Assembly: GCA_965205265.1 (NCBI GenBank)
Contig: CBDBGH010000003.1
Span: forward strand, 448,001-512,000
From: Alphaproteobacteria bacterium
GTDB lineage: Bacteria > Pseudomonadota > Alphaproteobacteria > Bin95
Direction of reading: 5' to 3'
DNA length: 64,000 bases
Part shown: piece by piece, positions 12,139-63,645 of the stretch
How positions within the stretch are numbered: position 1 is the first letter of the stretch
Layout of the letters: each line of letters opens with the position of its first letter
Notes under the pieces: model-generated
Databases searched by the model: none
Told to the model about the DNA's origin: nothing
Seen by the model: the letters and a program-made list of their open reading frames with translations, nothing else
Position numbers and translations under genes: made by a program

Positions 12139-12681
12139 TCACGCTCTCCGCTGGAAAAATCCGAGGCCGGTCTCCGTCAGGACGCCGGCGAGCGGCCGGT
12201 CGTCCGGTCCGACGGGCACGGCCGCCACCTCCTGTGCCGCATGGGCCGCGCCGATGGCAAGGGCGCCCGTCGCCGCAATCGTCCGGTCGTAATAGCCGCC
12301 GCCGTAACCGAGGCGGTTGCCGCGGGCGTCGAAGGCGAGCAGCGGCACCAGCAGCACATCCGGCTCCGCCGCCAGCCCCGTCGGCTCTAGGATTCCGAAG
12401 GGGCCCGGAACCATTCTGTCCCCCGGCCGCCAGAGCCGGAATTCCAGCACCGTGCCGCGCGGCCCGGTCACCGGCAGCGCCACCGGCCGGCCGAGCGCCT
12501 GTAGCAGCGGACGGGGATCGATTTCCCCCCGGACCGGCCAGTAGCCCGCGATGCACCGCCCTTCGAGCGGCGCGTCCGGGCAGAGCGCGGCCGGCGCGAA
12601 GCCCGCCCGGCGCCGCAGCATTTCGCGGCGCATGGCCGCCTTGGCGGAGGCAAGCGAAGCCGCCCTGGCCGTCGGTCTCAA
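12139..12681 (-). CDS. ygfA: 5-formyltetrahydrofolate cyclo-ligase (start uncertain; ATG at 12633 is an alternative)
   Basis: RLGYGGGYYDR motif; lies directly downstream of 6S RNA as in other proteobacteria. Confidence 0.93.
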   Translation of the reverse strand: MRPTARAASLASAKAAMRREMLRRRAGFAPAALCPDAPLEGRCIAGYWPVRGEIDPRPLLQALGRPVALPVTGPRGTVLEFRLWRPGDRMVPGPFGILEPTGLAAEPDVLLVPLLAFDARGNRLGYGGGYYDRTIAATGALAIGAAHAAQEVAAVPVGPDDRPLAGVLTETGLGFFQRRA

Positions 12682-12811
12682 GCCAATCCTCCGGGACCCT
12701 CGCCATCGAGGTGGGCGTCGTGTGCCGAAGCCGGGACTCCGGCAGGGACAACTCCCTGGAGTTTCGGTAACGGCCCCGGGATTTCGTTAGCCAAACGCAC
12801 CGGGCAGCTTC
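12656..12811 (-). ncRNA. ssrS: 6S RNA
   Basis: zapA-ssrS-ygfA synteny; closing stem GAAGCTGCCC...GGGCGGCTTC; alphaproteobacterial core CAGGGAGTTGTCCCTG and CGCCCACCT. Confidence 0.88.
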
Positions 12812-12820
12812 GCGGCGACT

Positions 12821-18886: not shown

Positions 18887-19786
18887 TCAGGCCGCCCGCG
18901 GCCTCTCCCCCTGTATCTGCGTCCGGTGCAGCCGGCGGCGGGTTGCGGCGTCGAAGGGGTCGCGGCGGTGCATGGTGCAGCGGTTGTCCCAGAGCACCAC
19001 GTCGCCCACCTGCCAGCGGTGGCGATAAGTGAATTGCTCCTGCTCGACATGGCTCCACAGCTCGTCCAGCAGCGCCTCCGAATCCGAAACCTTCATGCCC
19101 TCGACATAGGAGTTGAGCCGCCGGCCCAGATAGAGCACCGGGCGCCCGCTCTCCGGATGCACCGGCACGGCCGGGTGGCTGGCGCCGGGCGCCTGGCTCA
19201 CATCCGCCACCTCGTCGAAGCCCGCGCGCAGATAGCCGCCGGAATTGACGCTCGAATCGTGGCGGACGCTGGCGGATTCGAGCCGGCGCCGCATCCCCGC
19301 CGGAAGCGCTTCCAGCGCGGCATACATGTTGAGGAAGCAGGTGTCGCCGCCCTCCGGCGGGATTTCCAGCGCGTAGAGGGCGCTGGCCTTGGGCGGGCGC
19401 TCCTCATAGCTCATGTCGGTGTGCCAGGACGCCTCGCCCGCGCCGAGCGAGCCGATGGGCTTGCCGTCCCTGACGATGTTGGAAATCACATAGAGCTCCG
19501 GCACGCCCTCCACCATGGTCTGGCCGTTCTCCATGATCGGCGCATGGTCGAGCTTGCCGAAGCGCGAAGAGAAGGCGACGAACTCTGCGTCCGTCAGCGT
19601 CTGCCCGCGAAACACCACCACCCCATGCTCGATCCAGGCGGCATGGATGGCGGCGAAGGTCTCGTCGTCGAGCGGCTTGGACAGGTCCACGCCCTCGATC
19701 ACGGCGCCCAGCGCGGCCCCTGTCGGCGCCGCCCTTACGATCTGCTCGACACCTTCCGGCATGGCTTCGGCCTCCTCGTTCGCCAA
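18887..19786 (-). CDS. TauD/TfdA family Fe(II)/2-oxoglutarate dioxygenase (start uncertain)
   Basis: WHTD, GGDT, WDNRCTMHRR facial-triad motifs. Confidence 0.92.
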   Translation of the reverse strand: MANEEAEAMPEGVEQIVRAAPTGAALGAVIEGVDLSKPLDDETFAAIHAAWIEHGVVVFRGQTLTDAEFVAFSSRFGKLDHAPIMENGQTMVEGVPELYVISNIVRDGKPIGSLGAGEASWHTDMSYEERPPKASALYALEIPPEGGDTCFLNMYAALEALPAGMRRRLESASVRHDSSVNSGGYLRAGFDEVADVSQAPGASHPAVPVHPESGRPVLYLGRRLNSYVEGMKVSDSEALLDELWSHVEQEQFTYRHRWQVGDVVLWDNRCTMHRRDPFDAATRRRLHRTQIQGERPRAA

Positions 19787-19926
19787 CCGCCCGCAATGTC
19801 GGGCAAGCGGCGCTCAGGGTCAATGCATTCGTCCTGTCGCCTCGCCAAGGGCGGTAGCGCGCCTGTTTCCCACTCTTTGGGATAGGGAGTCAAGTGTTTG
19901 TTCGTAATATCAGAAATATTTCTTAA

Positions 19927-20450
19927 ATAAGCTTGATTTTGCTGCGTCCACACCGATATTGAGCGGGAGGAATGGAGCGGCCTTCGCGCGGGGCCGCTTC
20001 ACTGCGCTCAAGGCGCCGCCGCGAAAAGCTCCGGGGCAGCCGACAGGAGAGGTGCGCGCTGCGTCTGCCTCGTGCGCGCCGGCGCGCCCGGGCAATCAGG
20101 CGCGCGATTCGCGCCGCCGCGAAACGCGCAGGGGCGCGCAGGCGCGGGCGCGCAGGATACGCGCGAATTAGGGTTCCGCCGCTCGGAGAAAGGCGGCGGT
20201 GGGACGGAGGGAACGAAGTGGAACAAAACGGGATAAGAGAACGACATTCAGGATGCGGAGGGACAGAGTTTCGGCGGAACGGTTCCGATGCTCGAATTCT
20301 CCTCTTCCGCCTGCGGAAGCGGCGGGCGCAGCCCAACAGGCGCCCGTCACACCGGGAGAAGAAGACAAACAGCGGTCCCATACCGGAAAGGGCCACAGGG
20401 TATGAGCATCGCGCATGCGGATCATGACATCGCATGACATACCATGACGC
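19927..20450 (+). repeat. Dispersed intergenic cassette, copy A (promoter-like head, structured leader, phased CATGAC end)
   Basis: Several collinear blocks shared with the reverse complement of 30195-30822 (33/36, 13/13 and 27/28 identities, counted by eye). Confidence 0.8.
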
Positions 20451-20515
20451 CTGCCAGGGGATTAGGAGGCGCCGCATTGCCCGCCGGGTTCCGTGCGGCT
20501 ATGTGGGCCGGCATC

Positions 20516-21094
20516 ATGCTGCGCCGCCTCTATGACGGAACCATGCGCCTTGCCGGGCACCCCCGCGCCGTGTGGATGCTGGCGGCCGTCGCCTTCGCGG
20601 AGAGCCTCTTCTTTCCCGTGCCGGTCGAGGTGCTGCTGCTGCCGATGGTGCTGGCGGCGCCGGCGCGGGCCTGGCGCTACGCGGCCGTCGCCACGGCCGC
20701 CTCCGTCGCGGGCGGCCTGGCGGGCTACGGGACGGGCGCCTTCCTGTTCGAGACCGTCGGCGAGCCGCTGCTCCGCTTCTACGGCCATGGCGAGGCGTTC
20801 GCCGAGGCGCAGGCGCTCTACAACGCGCATGGCGGGCTCATCGTCTTCACCGCCGCCTTCTCTCCCATCCCCTACAAGGTGTTCACCATCGCGAGCGGCG
20901 TCGCCGGCACCGACCTCGCCACCTTTGTCCTAGCCTCGGCGGCCGGCAGGGGACTGCGCTTCTTCATCGTCGCCGCGCTGCTCTGGCGCTTCGGCGCGCC
21001 GATCCGCGCCGTTGTCGAACGCCGGCTCGCGCCATTGACCCTCGCCTTCGCCGTCCTGCTCGTGGCAGGCTTCCTGGTGTTGAGGGTGCTGTGA
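20516..21094 (+). CDS. YqaA/DedA family membrane protein
   Basis: AFAESLFFPVP, SVAGG, FSPIPYKV, RGLRF. Confidence 0.9.
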   Translation: MLRRLYDGTMRLAGHPRAVWMLAAVAFAESLFFPVPVEVLLLPMVLAAPARAWRYAAVATAASVAGGLAGYGTGAFLFETVGEPLLRFYGHGEAFAEAQALYNAHGGLIVFTAAFSPIPYKVFTIASGVAGTDLATFVLASAAGRGLRFFIVAALLWRFGAPIRAVVERRLAPLTLAFAVLLVAGFLVLRVL

Positions 21095-29409: not shown

Positions 29410-29486
29410 CGTCATGCCCGGACTTGTTCCGGGCATCTCTCCGGGCCGGCTGCGTGTGGATGGCCGGAACAAGTCCGGCCATGACG
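29410..29486. repeat. CGTC-type REP palindrome pair (family 1)
   Basis: CGTCATGCCCGGACTTGTTCCGGGCATC ... GATGGCCGGAACAAGTCCGGCCATGACG. Confidence 0.85.
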
Positions 29487-29539
29487 GGATGGGGACGCTG
29501 CGCAAGAGCGCTGAAACTTCCCGATCGGAGACACTGGCC

Positions 29540-30160
29540 ATGATCCGGACCCTTCGCGGTCTTGCCGCCTGCCTTGCGCTGCTTGCCGCCGGCTGCGCGA
29601 CCGCGCCGCCGGACAATCAGGGCAATCTCTGCTCCGTGTTCGAGCAATATCCGGACTGGTACGACTATGCCCGCGCCAGCGAGAGCGAGTGGGGCACGCC
29701 CGTTCCGGTCCAGATGGCCTTCGTCCATCGGGAGTCCAGCTATCGCAGCCATGCGCGGCCGCCGAGAAAGTGGCTCTGGTTCATCCCCTGGGGGCGCCAG
29801 ACATCGGCCAAGGGCTATGCGCAGGCGCTGGACGGCACCTGGGCGGAATATGAGAACGAGCGCGGCGGGTGGTTCCGCAGCCGCTCCGACATGGAAGACG
29901 CGCTCGACTTCATCGGCTGGTACAACCGCAAGAGCCACCGCCAGCTCGGCCTTGCCTACACCGACGCTTACAGCCTCTACCTGGCCTATCACGAGGGCCG
30001 CGGCGGCTACCGGAGCGGCAAGTGGAAGAACAAGAAGGGCGTCAAGGCGGCGGCCCGCAAGGTCGCCCGCACGGCCAAGCGCTACACCTCCCAGCTCGCC
30101 AAATGCGAGGCCCGCTTCCGCTGCGACTCCTGGTACCAGATCTGGCCCTTCTGCAGCTGA
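29540..30160 (+). CDS. Lipoprotein with transglycosylase SLT-like domain
   Basis: Lipobox LAAGC; HRESS, GYAQA, LYLAYHEG motifs. Confidence 0.85.
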   Translation: MIRTLRGLAACLALLAAGCATAPPDNQGNLCSVFEQYPDWYDYARASESEWGTPVPVQMAFVHRESSYRSHARPPRKWLWFIPWGRQTSAKGYAQALDGTWAEYENERGGWFRSRSDMEDALDFIGWYNRKSHRQLGLAYTDAYSLYLAYHEGRGGYRSGKWKNKKGVKAAARKVARTAKRYTSQLAKCEARFRCDSWYQIWPFCS

Positions 30161-30194: not shown

Positions 30195-30822
30195 GCGTCA
30201 TGGAATGTCATGCGATGTCATGTTCTCCATGCGCGGGGGACATGCCCTGTAGCCTGTCCGGGCATAACGCTCCGTTCATGCCTCTTCCTTTCCGCCTGCG
30301 GGCTGCCGCAGCCGGATGGCCCTTGTCCGTCGCCCCGGACGGCGCGCCGGCGCCGGTCCGGGGCCTCGCGCGGCTGGAGCCAGGCTGCATGAGGCCCCGG
30401 ATCGCCCGGCGGGCGTCCGGGGTGACGACGGGGGGCCTGCAGGCGCGGTCGTCCTCCGGCAGCGGCGCTGCGCTCATGTCCTGGGCATAAGCTTCGGCAA
30501 GGGCTGCGGCGGCGGGGGCCAGCTTTTCGGCCAGCATCGCCGCCAGTGCGGGGCGGGGGTCGGGTGCGGTCATCGTCTCTCCTCTTGCGACGGGGAGCAT
30601 GTCCCTGTTTCGCGCGTATCCCGCGCGCGGGCGGGCGTTACGCGGCGGCGCGGTTCGCGCGCCTGATTGCGCGCGCGAGGCACAGGGCGCACGTCTCCCG
30701 TCGGCTTCTCACGGGTTTTCAGAAACTGGCGCCGCTCGGCCGCGCGGCACCCGGGGGAGGCGGCTCCGGAGTCCGCTTCCCTGGGGACCATCATACCACA
30801 ATCCGTCAGATGTCAAGCTTAT
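30195..30822 (-). repeat. Dispersed intergenic cassette, copy B
   Basis: Same blocks as 19927-20450 in the same order on the minus strand; TTGACA and extended -10 TGgTATGAT at its 5' end. Confidence 0.8.
30208..30573 (-). CDS. Hypothetical ORF inside cassette copy B
   Basis: [12 protein letters not shown] before ATG 30573; helical-looking N-terminal half; no recognisable domain. Confidence 0.4.
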   Translation of the reverse strand: MTAPDPRPALAAMLAEKLAPAAAALAEAYAQDMSAAPLPEDDRACRPPVVTPDARRAIRGLMQPGSSRARPRTGAGAPSGATDKGHPAAAARRRKGRGMNGALCPDRLQGMSPAHGEHDIA

Positions 30823-30945
30823 ATAGGGAACAAAATTCAAAAATATCGGAAATTATTCATGTTTCGCGAAATCGGAAAGGGCATTGGCCGGGGTTTTCGC
30901 GAGAACCGAATTGGGCCTGTCCCCCGAAAAAGCTTTGCCCGTGGC

Positions 30946-31863
30946 CTACAACACTGTCACCTCATACCCCAGCCGGGGGAAGTGGACATGGATTTGGCCG
31001 GTTTTCGGGTCCTGGCGGCGGATTGTTATTTCGGTCGGGGTCGCGTGGACGGTCTCGCCTTCCACGGGGTCGAGGGCGAAATCTTCCGTTGCCACGCGGA
31101 CGCGCAGGCCGGGCGGGATGTCGCCGGGCGCGCCGGTTGAAGGCAGGGGCGCCGGCTCCATCTCGGCGGCGATGCGGAGCGCGTCGGCCGGCGTCAGTTC
31201 CGAGCGCCGGCCGTGGCCGATGCTGGCGATCCGGGCCATCCAGTCCGCGATGCGGGGATAGCCGGCGAGAACGGGGGCGGCCTTGCCGTCGAGGGCGTTC
31301 AACCACCACAGCCGCTGGTAGAGGGCGAAATCCGCGAGTCGGGGCGTGCGGGCTGCAAGGCCGAAGTCTTCGTCCGCCAGCAGGTCTTCCACCCAGCCCA
31401 GCATGAGGCGGAGCTGGCCTTCCTGGTGGGGCAGGTCGGCCGCCACCTTCTCCATGTCCGGGGCGGCGTGGCCGCGCATGGCGGAGCGGTCGCGGAAGAA
31501 GCCTTCCGACAGCGTCTCGCGGTTCATGCCGGTGACGTAGCGCGCGGTCGGCCACATCAGCACGCGCTCCGCCCAGCTCGCCAGCATGGCGTCGAACCCG
31601 CGCCCCGCTTCCGGCAGCAGCGGTGGGTCCGGGACGCGCCGGTCGAGCTCCATCGCGATGCGGAGCGTGTCGCAATAGATGTCCGCGCCGACCTGCAGCA
31701 CGGGCGTCCGGCGGAAGCCGCCGGTGAGCGGCATCAGGTCCGGTTTCGGCAGCACCATCGGCTGGATGACCGAGCGCCATGCCAGCCCCTTCAGCCCGAA
31801 GGCGAGGCGGATTTTCTCCGCATAGGGGGAAATGTCGTAATGGTGCAGAATGAGTCCGGCCAT
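30946..31863 (-). CDS. Glutathione S-transferase family protein
   Basis: LHHYDISPYAEKIR, LTGGFRRTPVLQVGADIYCDT, HVHFPRLGY. Confidence 0.92.
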   Translation of the reverse strand: MAGLILHHYDISPYAEKIRLAFGLKGLAWRSVIQPMVLPKPDLMPLTGGFRRTPVLQVGADIYCDTLRIAMELDRRVPDPPLLPEAGRGFDAMLASWAERVLMWPTARYVTGMNRETLSEGFFRDRSAMRGHAAPDMEKVAADLPHQEGQLRLMLGWVEDLLADEDFGLAARTPRLADFALYQRLWWLNALDGKAAPVLAGYPRIADWMARIASIGHGRRSELTPADALRIAAEMEPAPLPSTGAPGDIPPGLRVRVATEDFALDPVEGETVHATPTEITIRRQDPKTGQIHVHFPRLGYEVTVL

Positions 31864-31970
31864 GTCCGTGAGCCCCGGCATGTCGGGAAGCATGCGTCAT
31901 ATCGCGGACGGGACGGAAAACAAGGGGGCTTATATAGACAGGTTTGCGAGGCTTGGCGCCTTCTCTCCAA

Positions 31971-40524: not shown

Positions 40525-41633
40525 TGCGCATAGAACCGTTCCGCGCGGCGGTCGAGGAGGCGGCGCTCGACGACCTGAAGCGCCGCCTCGCCGCCACCCG
40601 TCCGCCCGTCTGGCCGGAGGGCGGCGGCTGGGAGTTCGGCATCGAGCGCGAGACGCTGGCCGAAACGCTCGCCTACTGGCAGGACGGCTTCGACTGGCGT
40701 GCCGTCGAGGCGCGGCTCAACGCCTGGCCGCAATTCCGCACCGAAATCGACGGCATCCCGGTCCACTTCATCCACACGCGCCATGCCGACCCGGACGCGC
40801 CGGCGCTGATCCTGACGCATGGCTGGCCGGGCTCGGTGCTGGAGTTCCTGGACGCGCTGCCGGCGCTCTCGGCGCGGGCGCATGTGGTGGTCCCGCACCT
40901 GCCGGGCTACGGCTTCTCCTCGCCCACGACCCGGCCGGTCTATGCGCGCGAGGTGGCGGGGCTCTGGCGCCGGCTGATGGCGGCGCTCGGCTATGAGCGT
41001 TTCGTGGCGCAGGGCGGCGACTGGGGCTCGCTGGTCACCTGCTGGCTCGGCTACGACCATGCCGACGCCGTGCGCGCCATCCACCTCAACATGCTCATCA
41101 TGCGCCCCGATCTGGCGCGCCTCCAGGAGCCGCTCGACGAGGCGGAGAAGGCGTGGATCGGGGCCATGCGCCGCACGGTGGACCTCGAGGGCGGCTATCT
41201 GCGCATCCAGGCGACCAAGCCGCAAAGCCTCGCGGTCGGCCTTTCGGACTCGCCGGCGGGGCTCTGCGCCTGGATCCTGGAGAAGTTCTACGGCTGGCCG
41301 GACGCGGGCTCGAATCTCGACCGCGACCTCGTGCTCGGCAATATCGCGCTTTACTGGTTCACCAACACGCTCGCCAGCTCCGCCTGGATGTATGCGACGG
41401 TGCTGGACCGCAAGCACTACATGCTGCCGGCGGGCGAGCGGATCACCGTGCCGACGGGCATGGCGCATTTCCCGAACGACACCTATCCGATGGCGCCCCG
41501 GCGCTGGCTGGAGCGGATCGCGCCGGTTATGCGCTGGACCGACATGCCGCGCGGCGGCCACTTCGCCGCCATGGAGGAGCCGGCGCTGTTCGCGGAAGAA
41601 GTGCTGGCCTTTCTGGACCAACTGGACGGTTGA
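40524..41633 (+). CDS. Microsomal-type epoxide hydrolase
   Basis: EHN domain, HGWP, GGDWG, GGHFA; TGATG coupling to the amidohydrolase. Confidence 0.92.
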   Translation: MRIEPFRAAVEEAALDDLKRRLAATRPPVWPEGGGWEFGIERETLAETLAYWQDGFDWRAVEARLNAWPQFRTEIDGIPVHFIHTRHADPDAPALILTHGWPGSVLEFLDALPALSARAHVVVPHLPGYGFSSPTTRPVYAREVAGLWRRLMAALGYERFVAQGGDWGSLVTCWLGYDHADAVRAIHLNMLIMRPDLARLQEPLDEAEKAWIGAMRRTVDLEGGYLRIQATKPQSLAVGLSDSPAGLCAWILEKFYGWPDAGSNLDRDLVLGNIALYWFTNTLASSAWMYATVLDRKHYMLPAGERITVPTGMAHFPNDTYPMAPRRWLERIAPVMRWTDMPRGGHFAAMEEPALFAEEVLAFLDQLDG

Positions 41634-41651
41634 GGCGGGGGGCTCCTTCCT

Positions 41652-41908
41652 CTTCTCCCCTCCCGCTGGGCGGGGGGGGGGGGGGCGGGGGAGGGCCTCT
41701 CGGCGTGACGGGTGTCCGCCGGCCTTCGCCCGCCGCTTGCGCCGCCTGCCGGCGGCCCCCTCTCCCGGCCTCTCCCCGCAAGCGGGGAGAGAGGAAATTG
41801 CGGCGGCGGTTCCTTCCTCTTCTCCCTTTGCCTGGCCAAGGGAAGCCGCCCCGTCTTCTCCCCTCCCGCTGGGCGGGAGGGGCGGGGAGGGTCTCTCGGC
41901 GTGACGGG
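41652..41908. repeat. GC-rich palindromic repeat cluster (two direct copies around a CCTCTCCCCGCAAGCGGGGAGAG hairpin)
   Basis: CTTCTCCCCTCCCGCTGGGCGGG..GAGGG.CTCTCGGCGTGACGGG at about 41652 and 41855; first copy has a G14 run. Confidence 0.75.
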
Positions 41909-41948
41909 CCTTCGCCCCGCGCCCTGTGGATATTTTTCTTCCCGAGGG

Positions 41949-41977
41949 TTGCAATTCGGGAAAATAAGCCCTAATTT
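41949..41977 (+). promoter_or_regulatory. Putative sigma70 promoter of the HTH gene
   Basis: TTGCAA-N17-TAATTT in an AT-rich patch. Confidence 0.45.
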
Positions 41978-42166
41978 CCTGCCCATAAAGGTTTAAAAAG
42001 GGAACAGTGACCTGACGAAACGCGCCGCATTGCGGCCACGCGACGGGATTGGGGCAGTCGAACGCGCCGGGGGCGGCAGACGGGGGAGCTGCGCGCGCCG
42101 GCCGGGCAGGGGCGCGCAATGTTCCATTGGAGAAGACAGGGGGCCGGGCGCGGCCGGGGAGGGAAG

Positions 42167-42568
42167 ATGACCGGGACATTGACGGAGCGCAGGCGGGGCA
42201 GCCCCGTCGGCGAGGACCTCCGCCGCCGGGCGGTTGCGGCGGTGCTGGAGAAAGGAATGACCGGGCGGGCCGCCGCCCGGCATTTCGAGGTGAGCGAACC
42301 CAGCGTCTGGCGGTGGGTAAGGCGCTACCGGCAGCGCGGCCATCTTCGCCCCGACCCGAAGAGCGGCCGCCCGTCCGGGATCGAGCCGGAGCGGGAGCGC
42401 ATTTTCCGCCTTGTGGAGGGCCGGCCGGACCTCTCGGTGCGCGCGCTGCAACGGGCGCTCGCCGCCGAGGGCGCGGTTTTCGCCGTAACCACCCTGCACC
42501 GCTTCCTGAAGCGCCACGGCCTCCAGCGCCGCCGCCGCAACCCCGCCCCCACGCCCGCCGGCGGCTGA
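42167..42568 (+). CDS. Stand-alone IS630/Tc1-type transposase HTH protein (no DDE domain)
   Basis: DLRRRAVAAV, RAAARHFEVS..SVWRWVRRY, GRPS, LHRFLKRHGL; GGGAGG RBS; no catalytic ORF follows. Confidence 0.8.
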   Translation: MTGTLTERRRGSPVGEDLRRRAVAAVLEKGMTGRAAARHFEVSEPSVWRWVRRYRQRGHLRPDPKSGRPSGIEPERERIFRLVEGRPDLSVRALQRALAAEGAVFAVTTLHRFLKRHGLQRRRRNPAPTPAGG

Positions 42569-42584
42569 TGCGGGCCCTCTTCAT

Positions 42585-42860
42585 CGTCATACCCGGACTT
42601 GTTCCACTGCTGTCCGGTTTAGATTTGGGGGACAGAGCGCATGGCTTGGATTCAACCGGGTTTCGAGGGGTTCGGCGAAATCGGGACTCGGATCGACACC
42701 CGGCGTCCCGGCCCTGTTCCCGTCATACCCGGACTTGTTCCGGGTATCCATACGGCCGCCTGGTGGAGCCGCTTGAGAGAGATACCCGGAACAAGTCCGG
42801 GTATGACGAAAGGGGGGCGTCCGGGTATGACGGACAGGGGGCGTCCGAGCATGACGGAGG
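42585..42860. repeat. Composite REP locus (family 1): truncated left arm, ~115 bp insert, full REP pair, tandem ~24 bp tails
   Basis: CGTCATACCCGGACTTGTTCC at 42585 and 42721; right arm ends 42808; GGGGGCGTCCG.G.ATGACGGA units follow. Confidence 0.85.
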
Positions 42861-42957
42861 AGGGCGTTCGGGCAGGGTGGACGGAACGCCGGGATCGATC
42901 CCGATGCGCGTTGCGCTCACAGTCCGCGGCCTCCCCGGTGCTGGCCTTGCGGGCCGA

Positions 42958-43263
42958 TCACGCCGGATGATACCGGCGAACGTCGATCTCGCCGGCCCGT
43001 GCGCGCATCTGCGCGGCGTCGTGCCACGCCTGCATCCGCAGCAGCAGGTCCATGCTGAGGCCGAACGCCTTCTCGACCCGCATCGCCATCTCGGGCGACA
43101 GCGAGGCGTTGCCGTTCACCAGGTCCGAGAGCGTCGCGCGGCGCACGCCGAGAATCCGCGCCGCCGCCGCAACGCTCAACCCCAGTTCCTCAAGGGCCTC
43201 GATCCGGATGAAGGTTCCGGGATGCGGGGGAGTCATCCCCATCTTGATGCCGTCGCTGGTCAT
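42958..43263 (-). CDS. higA: HigA family antitoxin
   Basis: PPHPG, HTH RRATLSDLVNG, LSPEMAMR, MQAWHD. Confidence 0.92.
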   Translation of the reverse strand: MTSDGIKMGMTPPHPGTFIRIEALEELGLSVAAAARILGVRRATLSDLVNGNASLSPEMAMRVEKAFGLSMDLLLRMQAWHDAAQMRARAGEIDVRRYHPA

Positions 43264-63570: not shown

Positions 63571-63645
63571 GGGCGCGTAGCTCAGCGGGAGAGCACTGTC
63601 TTCACACGGCAGGGGTCGCTGGTTCAAACCCAGCCGCGCCCACCA
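63571..63645 (+). tRNA. tRNA-Val (anticodon CAC)
   Basis: GGGCGCG/CGCGCCC acceptor stem, anticodon arm CTGTC-TTCACAC-GGCAG, GGTTCAAA T-loop, encoded CCA. Confidence 0.97.

Follow-up and report, generated by a model that had tools for sequence, protein, structure and literature searches.

What are the two partly identical intergenic segments that lie in opposite orientation within one 64,000-nucleotide (nt) stretch of an alphaproteobacterial genome, and is it an RNA, a gene or the DNA itself that is conserved in them? The stretch, hereafter the window, covers positions 448,001-512,000 of contig CBDBGH010000003.1 of Alphaproteobacteria bacterium (Bin95), assembly GCA_965205265.1, and coordinates below refer to it unless a contig is named. 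The segments, copy A (19927-20450, plus strand) and copy B (30822-30195, minus strand), had been read in an initial annotation as two copies of a non-autonomous cassette with a promoter, a conserved structured leader, a swappable middle and a fixed end. Copies A and B are decayed members of a large cassette family. The reading favoured here, held with somewhat more confidence than doubt, is that this modular, non-autonomous intergenic family spread by insertion within one genus from a founder that paired a gene for a protein like the phage small terminase subunit (TerS) with phased repeats (iterons). The mobile, cargo-swapping half of the earlier interpretation stands, while its structured-RNA half is weak.

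Copies A and B belong to a large family of intergenic cassettes

Both copies were read and then aligned pairwise. All seven collinear blocks described earlier were recovered in A and B with coordinates and strands unchanged: ATAAGCTTGA (starting at 19927 in A and 30822 in B), a first hairpin followed by AGCCGACRGGAGASGTGCGC, the GCAATCAGG core and GGATACGCGCGAA (Table 1), middles unrelated to each other, and a 3' end with three CATGAC repeats in 10-bp phase (20423-20448 in A, 30222-30197 in B). Open reading frames (ORFs) crossing the shared end of A and B indeed run in different frames and stop at different TGA codons of the repeat; conservation at this end therefore lies at the nucleotide level. 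No inverted pair links both ends of A or of B, in agreement with the reported lack of terminal inverted repeats (TIRs).

The copy number of two had to be revised to at least 73 loci in the genome. The 136-nt core of copy A returned 81 blastn high-scoring segment pairs, which resolved into 73 loci; all of these lie on contig C3 (5.46 Mb), C1 and C2 having none. When the genome was searched with the leader of A, 40 sense-strand matches of 199 candidates scored were returned, namely the query itself and 39 others (E-values from 2.8e-53 to 5.6e-22), a likeness that chance is very far from explaining. Aligned with MAFFT, the 73 copies displayed a common plan: an AT-rich head, a promoter-like TTGACA-N15-TGnTATGAT motif, a hairpin, a GC-rich leader of about 200 nt, GGATACGCGCGAA, a second hairpin, a purine-rich stretch, a variable part and a 3' module of about 70 nt, for a total length of about 0.45 to about 1.45 kb in an all-against-all comparison. 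The head averaged 56% A+T, in a genome of 68% G+C. The leader core (GCAATCAGG...AAACGC) was almost invariant across copies, its conservation exceeding that of the promoter and of the cargo, and 30 of the 73 copies had the 9-nt stem GGATACGCG unchanged at the aligned position, the remainder carrying variants. The ATAAGCTTGA block, previously placed at a -35-like position, is present in A and B but private to those two (2/73); the family motif there is TTGACA.

The 3' module ends in 2-6 CATGAC(AT) repeats at intervals of 10 bp or about 32 bp, a spacing that puts the repeats on one face of the helix, and some copies carry a second repeat set about 32 bp beyond the first. Phased CATGAC arrays numbered 108 genome-wide against about 11 expected by chance, and 89 of the 108 followed a same-strand leader at a distance of 50-1700 nt, which argues that leader and array belong together. 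Searched by regular expression, an array was found within 1.5 kb of the leader at 63 of the 73 loci. If the favoured reading holds, about 1% of the symbiont chromosome would consist of a single cassette family (73 loci, each 0.5-1.5 kb long, on 5.46 Mb), and the cassettes would offer a natural series in which about 70 near-identical units of promoter-like head and leader precede differing cargos.

All cassettes were intergenic: none of the 73 cores lay inside a long ORF with high G+C at third codon positions (GC3), as judged with a crude GC3-based gene caller. The commonest context was between convergent genes (18/73), and among the 69 copies for which the same caller gave a downstream gene, this gene was co-oriented with the cassette in 31 and opposed to it in 38. 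Such orientations argue against a role as leader or promoter of host genes. Copy A does lie 0-30 nt upstream of a co-oriented DedA-family gene, and three other genomes keep an element at this TauD-DedA site, as would be expected of a shared 5' control region (a regulon or mobile promoter) driving the chromosomal genes downstream. Copy B, however, points at the end of a convergent gene, and the cassettes have ORFs and a fixed 3' end of their own, which leaves host cis-regulation very improbable.

Other repeats of the genome met the cassettes at several loci. A different repeat beginning GGGGCTTATATGGATAGGTTGAC was found, in either orientation, directly against the AACATGA of CATGAC arrays, which looks as though its end targeted or joined them (C3 near 1205640, 1589120, 4009400, 42725 and 5413717; L057, L067, L097, L034 and L105). 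A second dispersed repeat family of the genome, palindromic and about 60 nt long (GTCATGCCCGGACTTGTTCCGGGCATCC with its complement), was nested in the cargo of copies such as L060, L062 and L100 and occurred in flanks as well. Two cassette loci were duplicated exactly together with their flanks (C3:1-1900 versus 4632600-4634400, and 41300-43100 versus 5412300-5414100), which points to large segmental duplications or to assembly redundancy; the contamination estimate of the genome was 7.28%.

Cargo classes and a TerS-like protein

The middle of the cassette, which in many copies is a genuine gene (a point absent from the initial annotation), fell into recurrent classes. Clustering of the 60 copies with a middle of at least 60 nt (the other 13 were shorter) yielded classes of 12, 10, 8, 7, 2, 2 and 2 members and 17 singletons. 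Since cargo classes recur among copies, the middle appears exchangeable, in keeping with the proposed modular non-autonomous element of fixed 5' and 3' parts. In two copies read in the alignment (C3_1270653+ and C3_3620078-), a B-type 5' half was joined to a main-type 3' half at the core.

The 12-member class encoded an acidic protein of 198 aa (P0002) without match in Pfam or NCBIfam and with a weak match to a PHROG of unknown function (phrog_31793, 7.5e-5). Copy B is a deleted form of this acidic type, which keeps the first ~50 codons and then diverges; an ESM Atlas search with the B cargo gave best scores of 0.85, to be taken as leads only. Copy A belonged to the 7-member class, in which no convincing ORF was found. 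In the 10-member class of short copies, a micro-ORF (MPKT...) was considered as a gene and found unconvincing, one-base indels shifting the frame and many differences being non-synonymous. PADLOC anti-phage defence profiles gave no family for P0002, nor for the protein of the 8-member class.

The latter, C-type class encoded a 303-aa protein (P0001), full length in 7 copies. Residues 11-87 matched Pfam Terminase_2 (PF03592; 3.7e-13, 50.7 bits against a cut-off of 26.1), and the protein matched PHROG terminase small subunit families (1e-13) as well as the DNA-binding domain of the SF6 small terminase (2cmp, 3.3e-9), the structures 2cmp, 4zc3 and 3zqp spanning 3e-9 to 2e-8. A full-length Terminase_2 match including the oligomerisation core was absent: the match covered profile positions 2-75 of 141 only, that is, the N-terminal helix-turn-helix (HTH). 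This HTH was found in C-type cargo alone, copies A and B being without it. The C-terminal two-thirds of P0001 formed an acidic or basic low-complexity tail unrelated to TerS, and conservation among 22 aligned relatives was confined to the first ~200 residues. The genome contained 7 PF03592 matches, every one of them a cassette copy.

Distribution among relatives and the probable founder form

The cassette leader was restricted to close relatives. Its core was matched in 13 of the 16 other congeneric genomes and in none of the 8 that represent two further genera of the family, while single weak matches were found in 2 of 16 class-level genomes (7.5e-4 and 2e-4). Several TerS-like genes each (2-12 per genome) were present in 11 of the 16 sister genomes, whereas the 3 sister genomes without leader matches had none; in the other two genera these genes numbered 0-1 per genome, with one match in 9 of 20 genomes. 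These counts ignore kinship among non-independent genomes and thus describe a pattern rather than a test.

A collection scan with P0001 returned 79 loci in records of metagenome-assembled genomes of uncultured Alphaproteobacteria or Rhodospirillaceae, several of them labelled as sponge-derived bins. Many of these loci had the leader core (1-7 mismatches) before the ORF and three CATGAC repeats at the ORF end. At distant loci such as L171, the ORF ended in phased repeats and was preceded by an AT-rich promoter-like stretch, the long GC-rich leader being missing. Because these loci keep ORF and repeats without the leader, the protein-iteron pair appears older than the leader, and a TerS-type gene physically coupled to phased CATGAC repeats is, as judged from sequence comparison, the likely founder form. 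The ORF at L171:2070-2215 also held internal CCTTACAC repeats beside CTGACATTTC or CATGACATTTC, which may be a second kind of iteron.

A protein search with P0001 yielded 364 relatives at E <=1e-5 among 8000 candidates scored, the name displayed, from one source, being "terminase small subunit". PLSDB plasmids gave no blastn match. In the portions of the literature that a full-text search brought up, no description of such a cassette was present, and the family is apparently undescribed in them. For annotation this means that TerS-like genes go by the name "terminase small subunit" (a name from that single source) and that cassette repeats break assemblies. The family also bears on the understanding of genome plasticity in uncultured marine or sponge-associated Alphaproteobacteria.

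Insertion polymorphism and the search for a mover

Empty sites, whose existence in relatives had been raised with the first description of the copies, were found as insertion polymorphism between species. The TauD-DedA spacer that holds copy A was empty in G003, a genome lacking the family (~110 nt, against ~720 nt in the genome studied here). An element was present at this site in G007, G010 and G016, and inserts of other sizes in G012 (~950 nt), G013 (~1.5 kb) and G015 (~2.6 kb; L117, L118 and L119), which suggests a hot spot or repeated turnover. At the site of the C-type copy 4474746, the flanks were 1-100 nt apart in 6 sister genomes, a contig end of G014 carried the element's 5' part at least, and G002 and G010 had inserts of other sizes. 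The comparison of this copy with G007, one of only two junctions at which target-site duplication was assessed, displayed a clean insertion between GCGCCGGC and AAACTCC without target duplication, with ends that run from ~55 nt upstream of the AT-rich head to 7 nt past the last CATGAC. The site of the B-type copy 3308946 was empty in G014, and a shorter element occupied the site of copy 1296629 in G005.

Searches for a mover gave negative results. In accordance with the initial annotation, no transposase was found among the cargo of the cassettes, and no autonomous transposase-encoding parent was found either, the cargo comprising the TerS-like protein, the acidic protein of no known family and micro-ORFs. 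Y1 (HUH) transposases (PF01797) were absent from the genome (98.98% complete), in a search that matched the control genomes. Seven identical TnpB-like (Cas12f1-like_TNB) ORFs of 430 aa were detected (C3:1267891, 4697223, 4856772, 5147638, 5260636, 5285380 and 5307380), and no link of the leader to an omega RNA was seen: none of the 73 leader loci or of the blastn matches was at a TnpB-like ORF, one TnpB copy lying 2.7 kb from a cassette.

Two observations concern these other elements. Six of the seven TnpB-like ORFs fell within 4.69-5.31 Mb, a stretch without any cassette. At L074 (C3:2141160-2142960), an IS110-family transposase gene (326 aa, ~C3:2141780-2143050) was inserted on the opposite strand right after the first CATGACAT of the 3' array; two further copies of this gene family, at 40% identity, were present in the genome, neither of them near a cassette.

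Structure and transcription of the leader

The invariance of the leader core and the promoter-like head directly upstream of it could mean that the element is the vehicle of a payload that is transcribed and structured, a non-coding RNA or leader (a riboregulator, ribozyme or guide-like scaffold). Helix by helix, the evidence for such an RNA was uneven. In per-sequence pair probabilities, the 5' hairpin (H1) was the only robust helix. A covariance model was built from three hand-drawn helices, and 90 sequences from this and other genomes were realigned to it. In this realignment, 79% of the cells of H1 were paired and 6 of its 8 pairs changed on both sides, so that H1, the best helix, was preserved through sequence change. 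Over all helices the covariation score reached 0.195, compared with 0.146 in shuffles (0/500 reach it) and 0.07-0.116 in slid controls. The share of paired cells, however, was 76.4% against 73.9% in shuffles, helix H3 largely failed, and the modest covariation was limited to the 5' hairpin and the second hairpin. As the alignment was fitted to the drawn structure, the realignment leans towards it.

Folding without a model gave less. The minimum free energies (MFEs) of the leaders were low because of their G+C content, and z-scores against dinucleotide shuffles were -0.28 (A) and -1.22 (B). For RNAalifold, 69 copies were used (four odd or partial ones dropped) and those at least 93% identical removed, leaving 61 leaders. 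In these, RNAalifold predicted 12 pairs with 0 compensatory changes in the core, although changes within the helix mostly preserved pairing (C-G to U-G in 22/61, U-G to U-A in 4/61); a core this invariant leaves covariation unable to count for or against a structure. On the 5' part of the leader RNAalifold gave no structure, since the 3' arms are misplaced relative to one another in the sequence-based alignment. In the MAFFT alignment, mutual information mainly reflected the subfamilies. Rfam had no match at gathering score, consistent with the initial statement that it matched no recognised RNA family, and nothing beyond noise up to E 10: permissive scans of A and B returned only E > 2.9 and unrelated eukaryotic or viral families. 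No terminator was found in A or B. Long-range pairing between the 5' and 3' ends was considered and rejected (mean z = -0.06 over 49 copies, one copy below -2), as was the leader as coding sequence: a frame is open through the core in most copies, yet conservation has no three-base periodicity and length differences include 2, 7, 11 and 16 nt.

Transcription was looked for in four runs, all of which consisted of contigs. In the sponge metatranscriptome X20, contigs of a relative covered the core and the 3' module, whereas the single contig in X24 lay on the 3' module only. At ~78x, the core-to-flank depth ratio in X20 was like those of two DNA libraries (117x and 70x), and DNA carry-over therefore explains the X20 coverage. 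Distant TerS-like cassettes, moreover, do without the leader. The structured-RNA leader of the initial annotation is weakly supported, and an RNA payload carried by the element is considered unlikely.

Phage context and a possible packaging role

TerS proteins recognise pac or cos repeats, pac sites often lie in or beside terS, and cosB of phage lambda has three Nu1 sites. The cargo with a TerS DNA-binding domain and the helically phased repeats that overlap the 3' end of its gene could in this light form dispersed TerS plus pac modules, to whose CATGAC arrays the large terminase of an infecting phage, or of a capsid-forming element that this genome lacks, would be recruited, with packaging of the host DNA beside each of about 70 sites. 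Satellite-like hitch-hiking, genome-wide lateral transduction or phage interference would be the effects. The weak phage-family match of P0002 agrees with this scenario, as does the lack of a large terminase of the genome's own, which means that the packaging partner must come from outside.

The phage context of the genome was poor. None of TerL_ATPase, Terminase_6N, Terminase_3 and HK97 capsid (PF03354, PF03237, PF04466 and PF05065) was found, control genomes being matched in each search, and the portal (PF04860) was represented by one sub-threshold fragment on C2. Neither P0001 (tblastn) nor the whole C cassette (blastn) had a match in 50,697 phage records. That P0001 matches just the N-terminal half of the Terminase_2 profile and has a low-complexity C-terminus, that no PADLOC profile was matched, and that packaging alone leaves insertion at new loci unexplained also speak against a packaging role, which is judged decidedly doubtful, more so than an RNA payload.

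A wider proposal has a small chance of being right, comparable to that of the RNA payload: the family would be a new class of selfish DNA that multiplies without transposase, TIRs or target duplications, its conserved machinery consisting only of the TerS-like protein, the CATGAC iterons and the leader core, and the roughly 70 arrays could serve as pac-like sites for incoming phages or capsid-forming elements. If this were true, the whole symbiont chromosome would become a transduction platform. The family ties a DNA-binding domain of the phage packaging type to a dispersed chromosomal repeat, and it possibly reveals a transposase-independent or phage-dependent spread of DNA.

A model for the cassette family and the evidence weighed

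According to the favoured reading, that of a modular family descended from a TerS-like founder with iterons, the full unit of about 1.45 kb would comprise an AT-rich head bearing a promoter-like site of the extended -10 type, the leader, a Shine-Dalgarno site with one ORF, and the 3' module. The putative founder cargo, a protein about 300 aa long, has an N-terminal TerS-type HTH, and its stop codon falls within the CATGAC array. By analogy, the protein would bind the phased CATGAC repeats as TerS proteins bind pac or cos repeats, and the protein-iteron pair may be what is functionally central and conserved in the element. Recombination within the leader core and the 3' module would have put other cargos, namely the acidic B protein and remnants of micro-ORFs, in place of the founder gene, and short copies such as A and B would be deletion derivatives, A keeping the cis parts only, with functions supplied in trans. 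The leader is seen as a lineage-specific addition with a core under strong sequence constraint, and most likely would act in cis on cargo expression, either through its RNA or through a site in the DNA. Insertion would be catalysed by a factor acting in trans.

Several results weigh against this reading. No enzyme able to move the element was identified, and no catalytic domain was found in P0001 by Pfam, by the alignment of its relatives or by comparison with the Protein Data Bank, so that the TerS-like protein leaves self-mobility unexplained; the binding of the repeats by this protein is itself carried over from phage TerS. The ends of the element were not sharp at copy 3308946, where the insert included extra non-family DNA (~115 nt upstream and ~47 nt downstream) and had an imperfect direct repeat, 25-40 nt long, at its borders. 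At the site of copy 1474946, the element was absent from the closest relative (G014), and the spacer was unalignable, with no readable junction. The same relative harbored many leaders and no PF03592 match, in a fragmented assembly (460 contigs, 93% complete).

The promoter-like head and the transcript data add to these points. A sigma-70 scan (spacers of 16-18 nt, at least 9/12 matches) reported 0 sites in A and B; A went unreported because its site matches 8/12, and B because the family spacer is 15 nt. With spacers of 14-18 nt, at least 9/12 matches were reached in only 47 of 73 copies, an exact TTGACA being present in 32/73, TATGAT in 24/73 and a TG before the -10 in 44/73. The DNA-like depth of the X20 contigs belongs here as well.

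Comparison with known systems

Phage TerS genes provided the closest comparison. The putative founder cargo has an N-terminal HTH whose homology to phage TerS (Terminase_2; Bacillus phage SF6/SPP1 G1P) is seen at profile level, and the founder has a short, helically phased direct-repeat array at or in the gene, like terS with pac or cos. Unlike phage TerS, the cassette has 7 chromosomal copies with about 66 gene-less or other-cargo derivatives, in a genome without large terminase, capsid or full portal, and no likeness at BLAST level to the phage records searched.

Comparisons with Correia elements, BIME/REP, ERIC, RIME and integrons drew on the general features of these systems. The cassettes resemble Correia elements, promoter-bearing miniature inverted-repeat transposable elements (MITEs) of Neisseria, in being short, multicopy, intergenic, non-autonomous and promoter-like and in deriving from a longer gene-bearing form. 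They differ from these and other MITEs by the lack of TIRs, of a target duplication at the one clean junction and of a transposase gene in the parent, and by directional 5' and 3' modules with a 200-nt leader. With BIME/REP, ERIC and rhizobial RIME they share modular mosaics of GC-rich, partly palindromic blocks that are intergenic only and lineage-specific. The cassette is, however, 10-30 times longer and has its own promoter-like head, Shine-Dalgarno site and ORFs, and no REP-associated Y1 transposase occurs in this genome. As in integron gene cassettes, unrelated ORFs are exchangeable between conserved flanks; in contrast to these, each copy has a promoter-like head of its own, copies are dispersed and not arrayed, and no attC-like imperfect inverted repeat was found in A or B (no integrase search was made). 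The family of A and B was classed among dispersed non-autonomous intergenic repeats, with a minority chance that it represents a new kind of selfish element based on a terminase domain.

Features of copies A and B and their surroundings

The features of both copies and of the genes that flank them are given in Table 1.

Table 1. Features of copies A and B and flanking genes (window coordinates)
Feature	Coordinates	Strand	Basis and remarks
Copy A, AT-rich head with degenerate promoter-like site	19897..19968	+	TTGATT 19933-19938, 16-nt spacer, GATATT 19955-19960; aligns to family TTGACA-N15-TGnTATGAT
Copy A, GC-rich leader, predicted start region to end of GGATACGCGCGAA	19972..20167	+	Alignments; MFE -118.3 kcal/mol, z -0.28
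Copy A, 5' hairpin H1 (GGAGCGGCC...GGCCGCTTC)	19973..20001	+	Predicted fold; covariance-model realignment
Copy A, nearly invariant leader core (GCAATCAGG...AACGC)	20092..20127	+	Most conserved columns in alignments of 73 copies and of 61 non-redundant copies
Copy A, GGATACGCGCGAA block, alignment anchor	20155..20167	+	Pairwise and family alignments
Copy A, post-leader hairpin CCGCCGC...GCGGCGG, then purine-rich stretch	20176..20199	+	Kept in most copies (consensus)
Copy A, variable middle, 7-copy cargo class	20200..20378	+	Clustering; no convincing ORF, ATG of the class is ATT here
Copy A, conserved 3' module, CATGAC at 20423, 20433 and 20443 (10-bp phase)	20379..20450	+	Sequence, family comparison
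Copy B, AT-rich head: TTGACA 30816-30811, 15-nt spacer, TG 30798-30797, TATGAT 30795-30790	30787..30870	-	Fits family consensus
Copy B, leader including core 30670-30635 and GGATACGCGCGAA 30621-30609	30609..30785	-	Alignment; fold z -1.22
Copy B, remnant of acidic B-type cargo ORF, 121 aa	30208..30572	-	First ~50 residues shared with the 198-aa P0002, then deletion or frameshift
Copy B, 3' module, three CATGAC at 30222, 30212 and 30202	30195..30275	-	Sequence
Flank of A, TauD/TfdA-family dioxygenase gene, divergent from A	18887..19786	-	Pfam PF02668, E = 3.8e-72
Flank of A, DedA/VTT-domain membrane protein gene, co-oriented, directly downstream	20444..21094	+	Pfam PF09335, E = 1.2e-9
Flank of B, SLT_4 transglycosylase lipoprotein gene, convergent with B	29414..30160	+	Pfam PF19489, E = 1.4e-72
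Flank of B, GST-like gene, upstream, same direction as B	30946..31893	-	Pfam GST_N_3 and GST_C_2

A weak JUMPstart/ops-like match (GGGCGGTAGCG, 19822-19861, plus strand, 14.9 bits, E = 3.5) adjoins the AT-rich head of copy A upstream and is probably due to chance. The only matches at Rfam gathering level in the window were a 6S RNA (12653-12813, minus strand, 64.2 bits) and a tRNA (63571-63642, plus strand).

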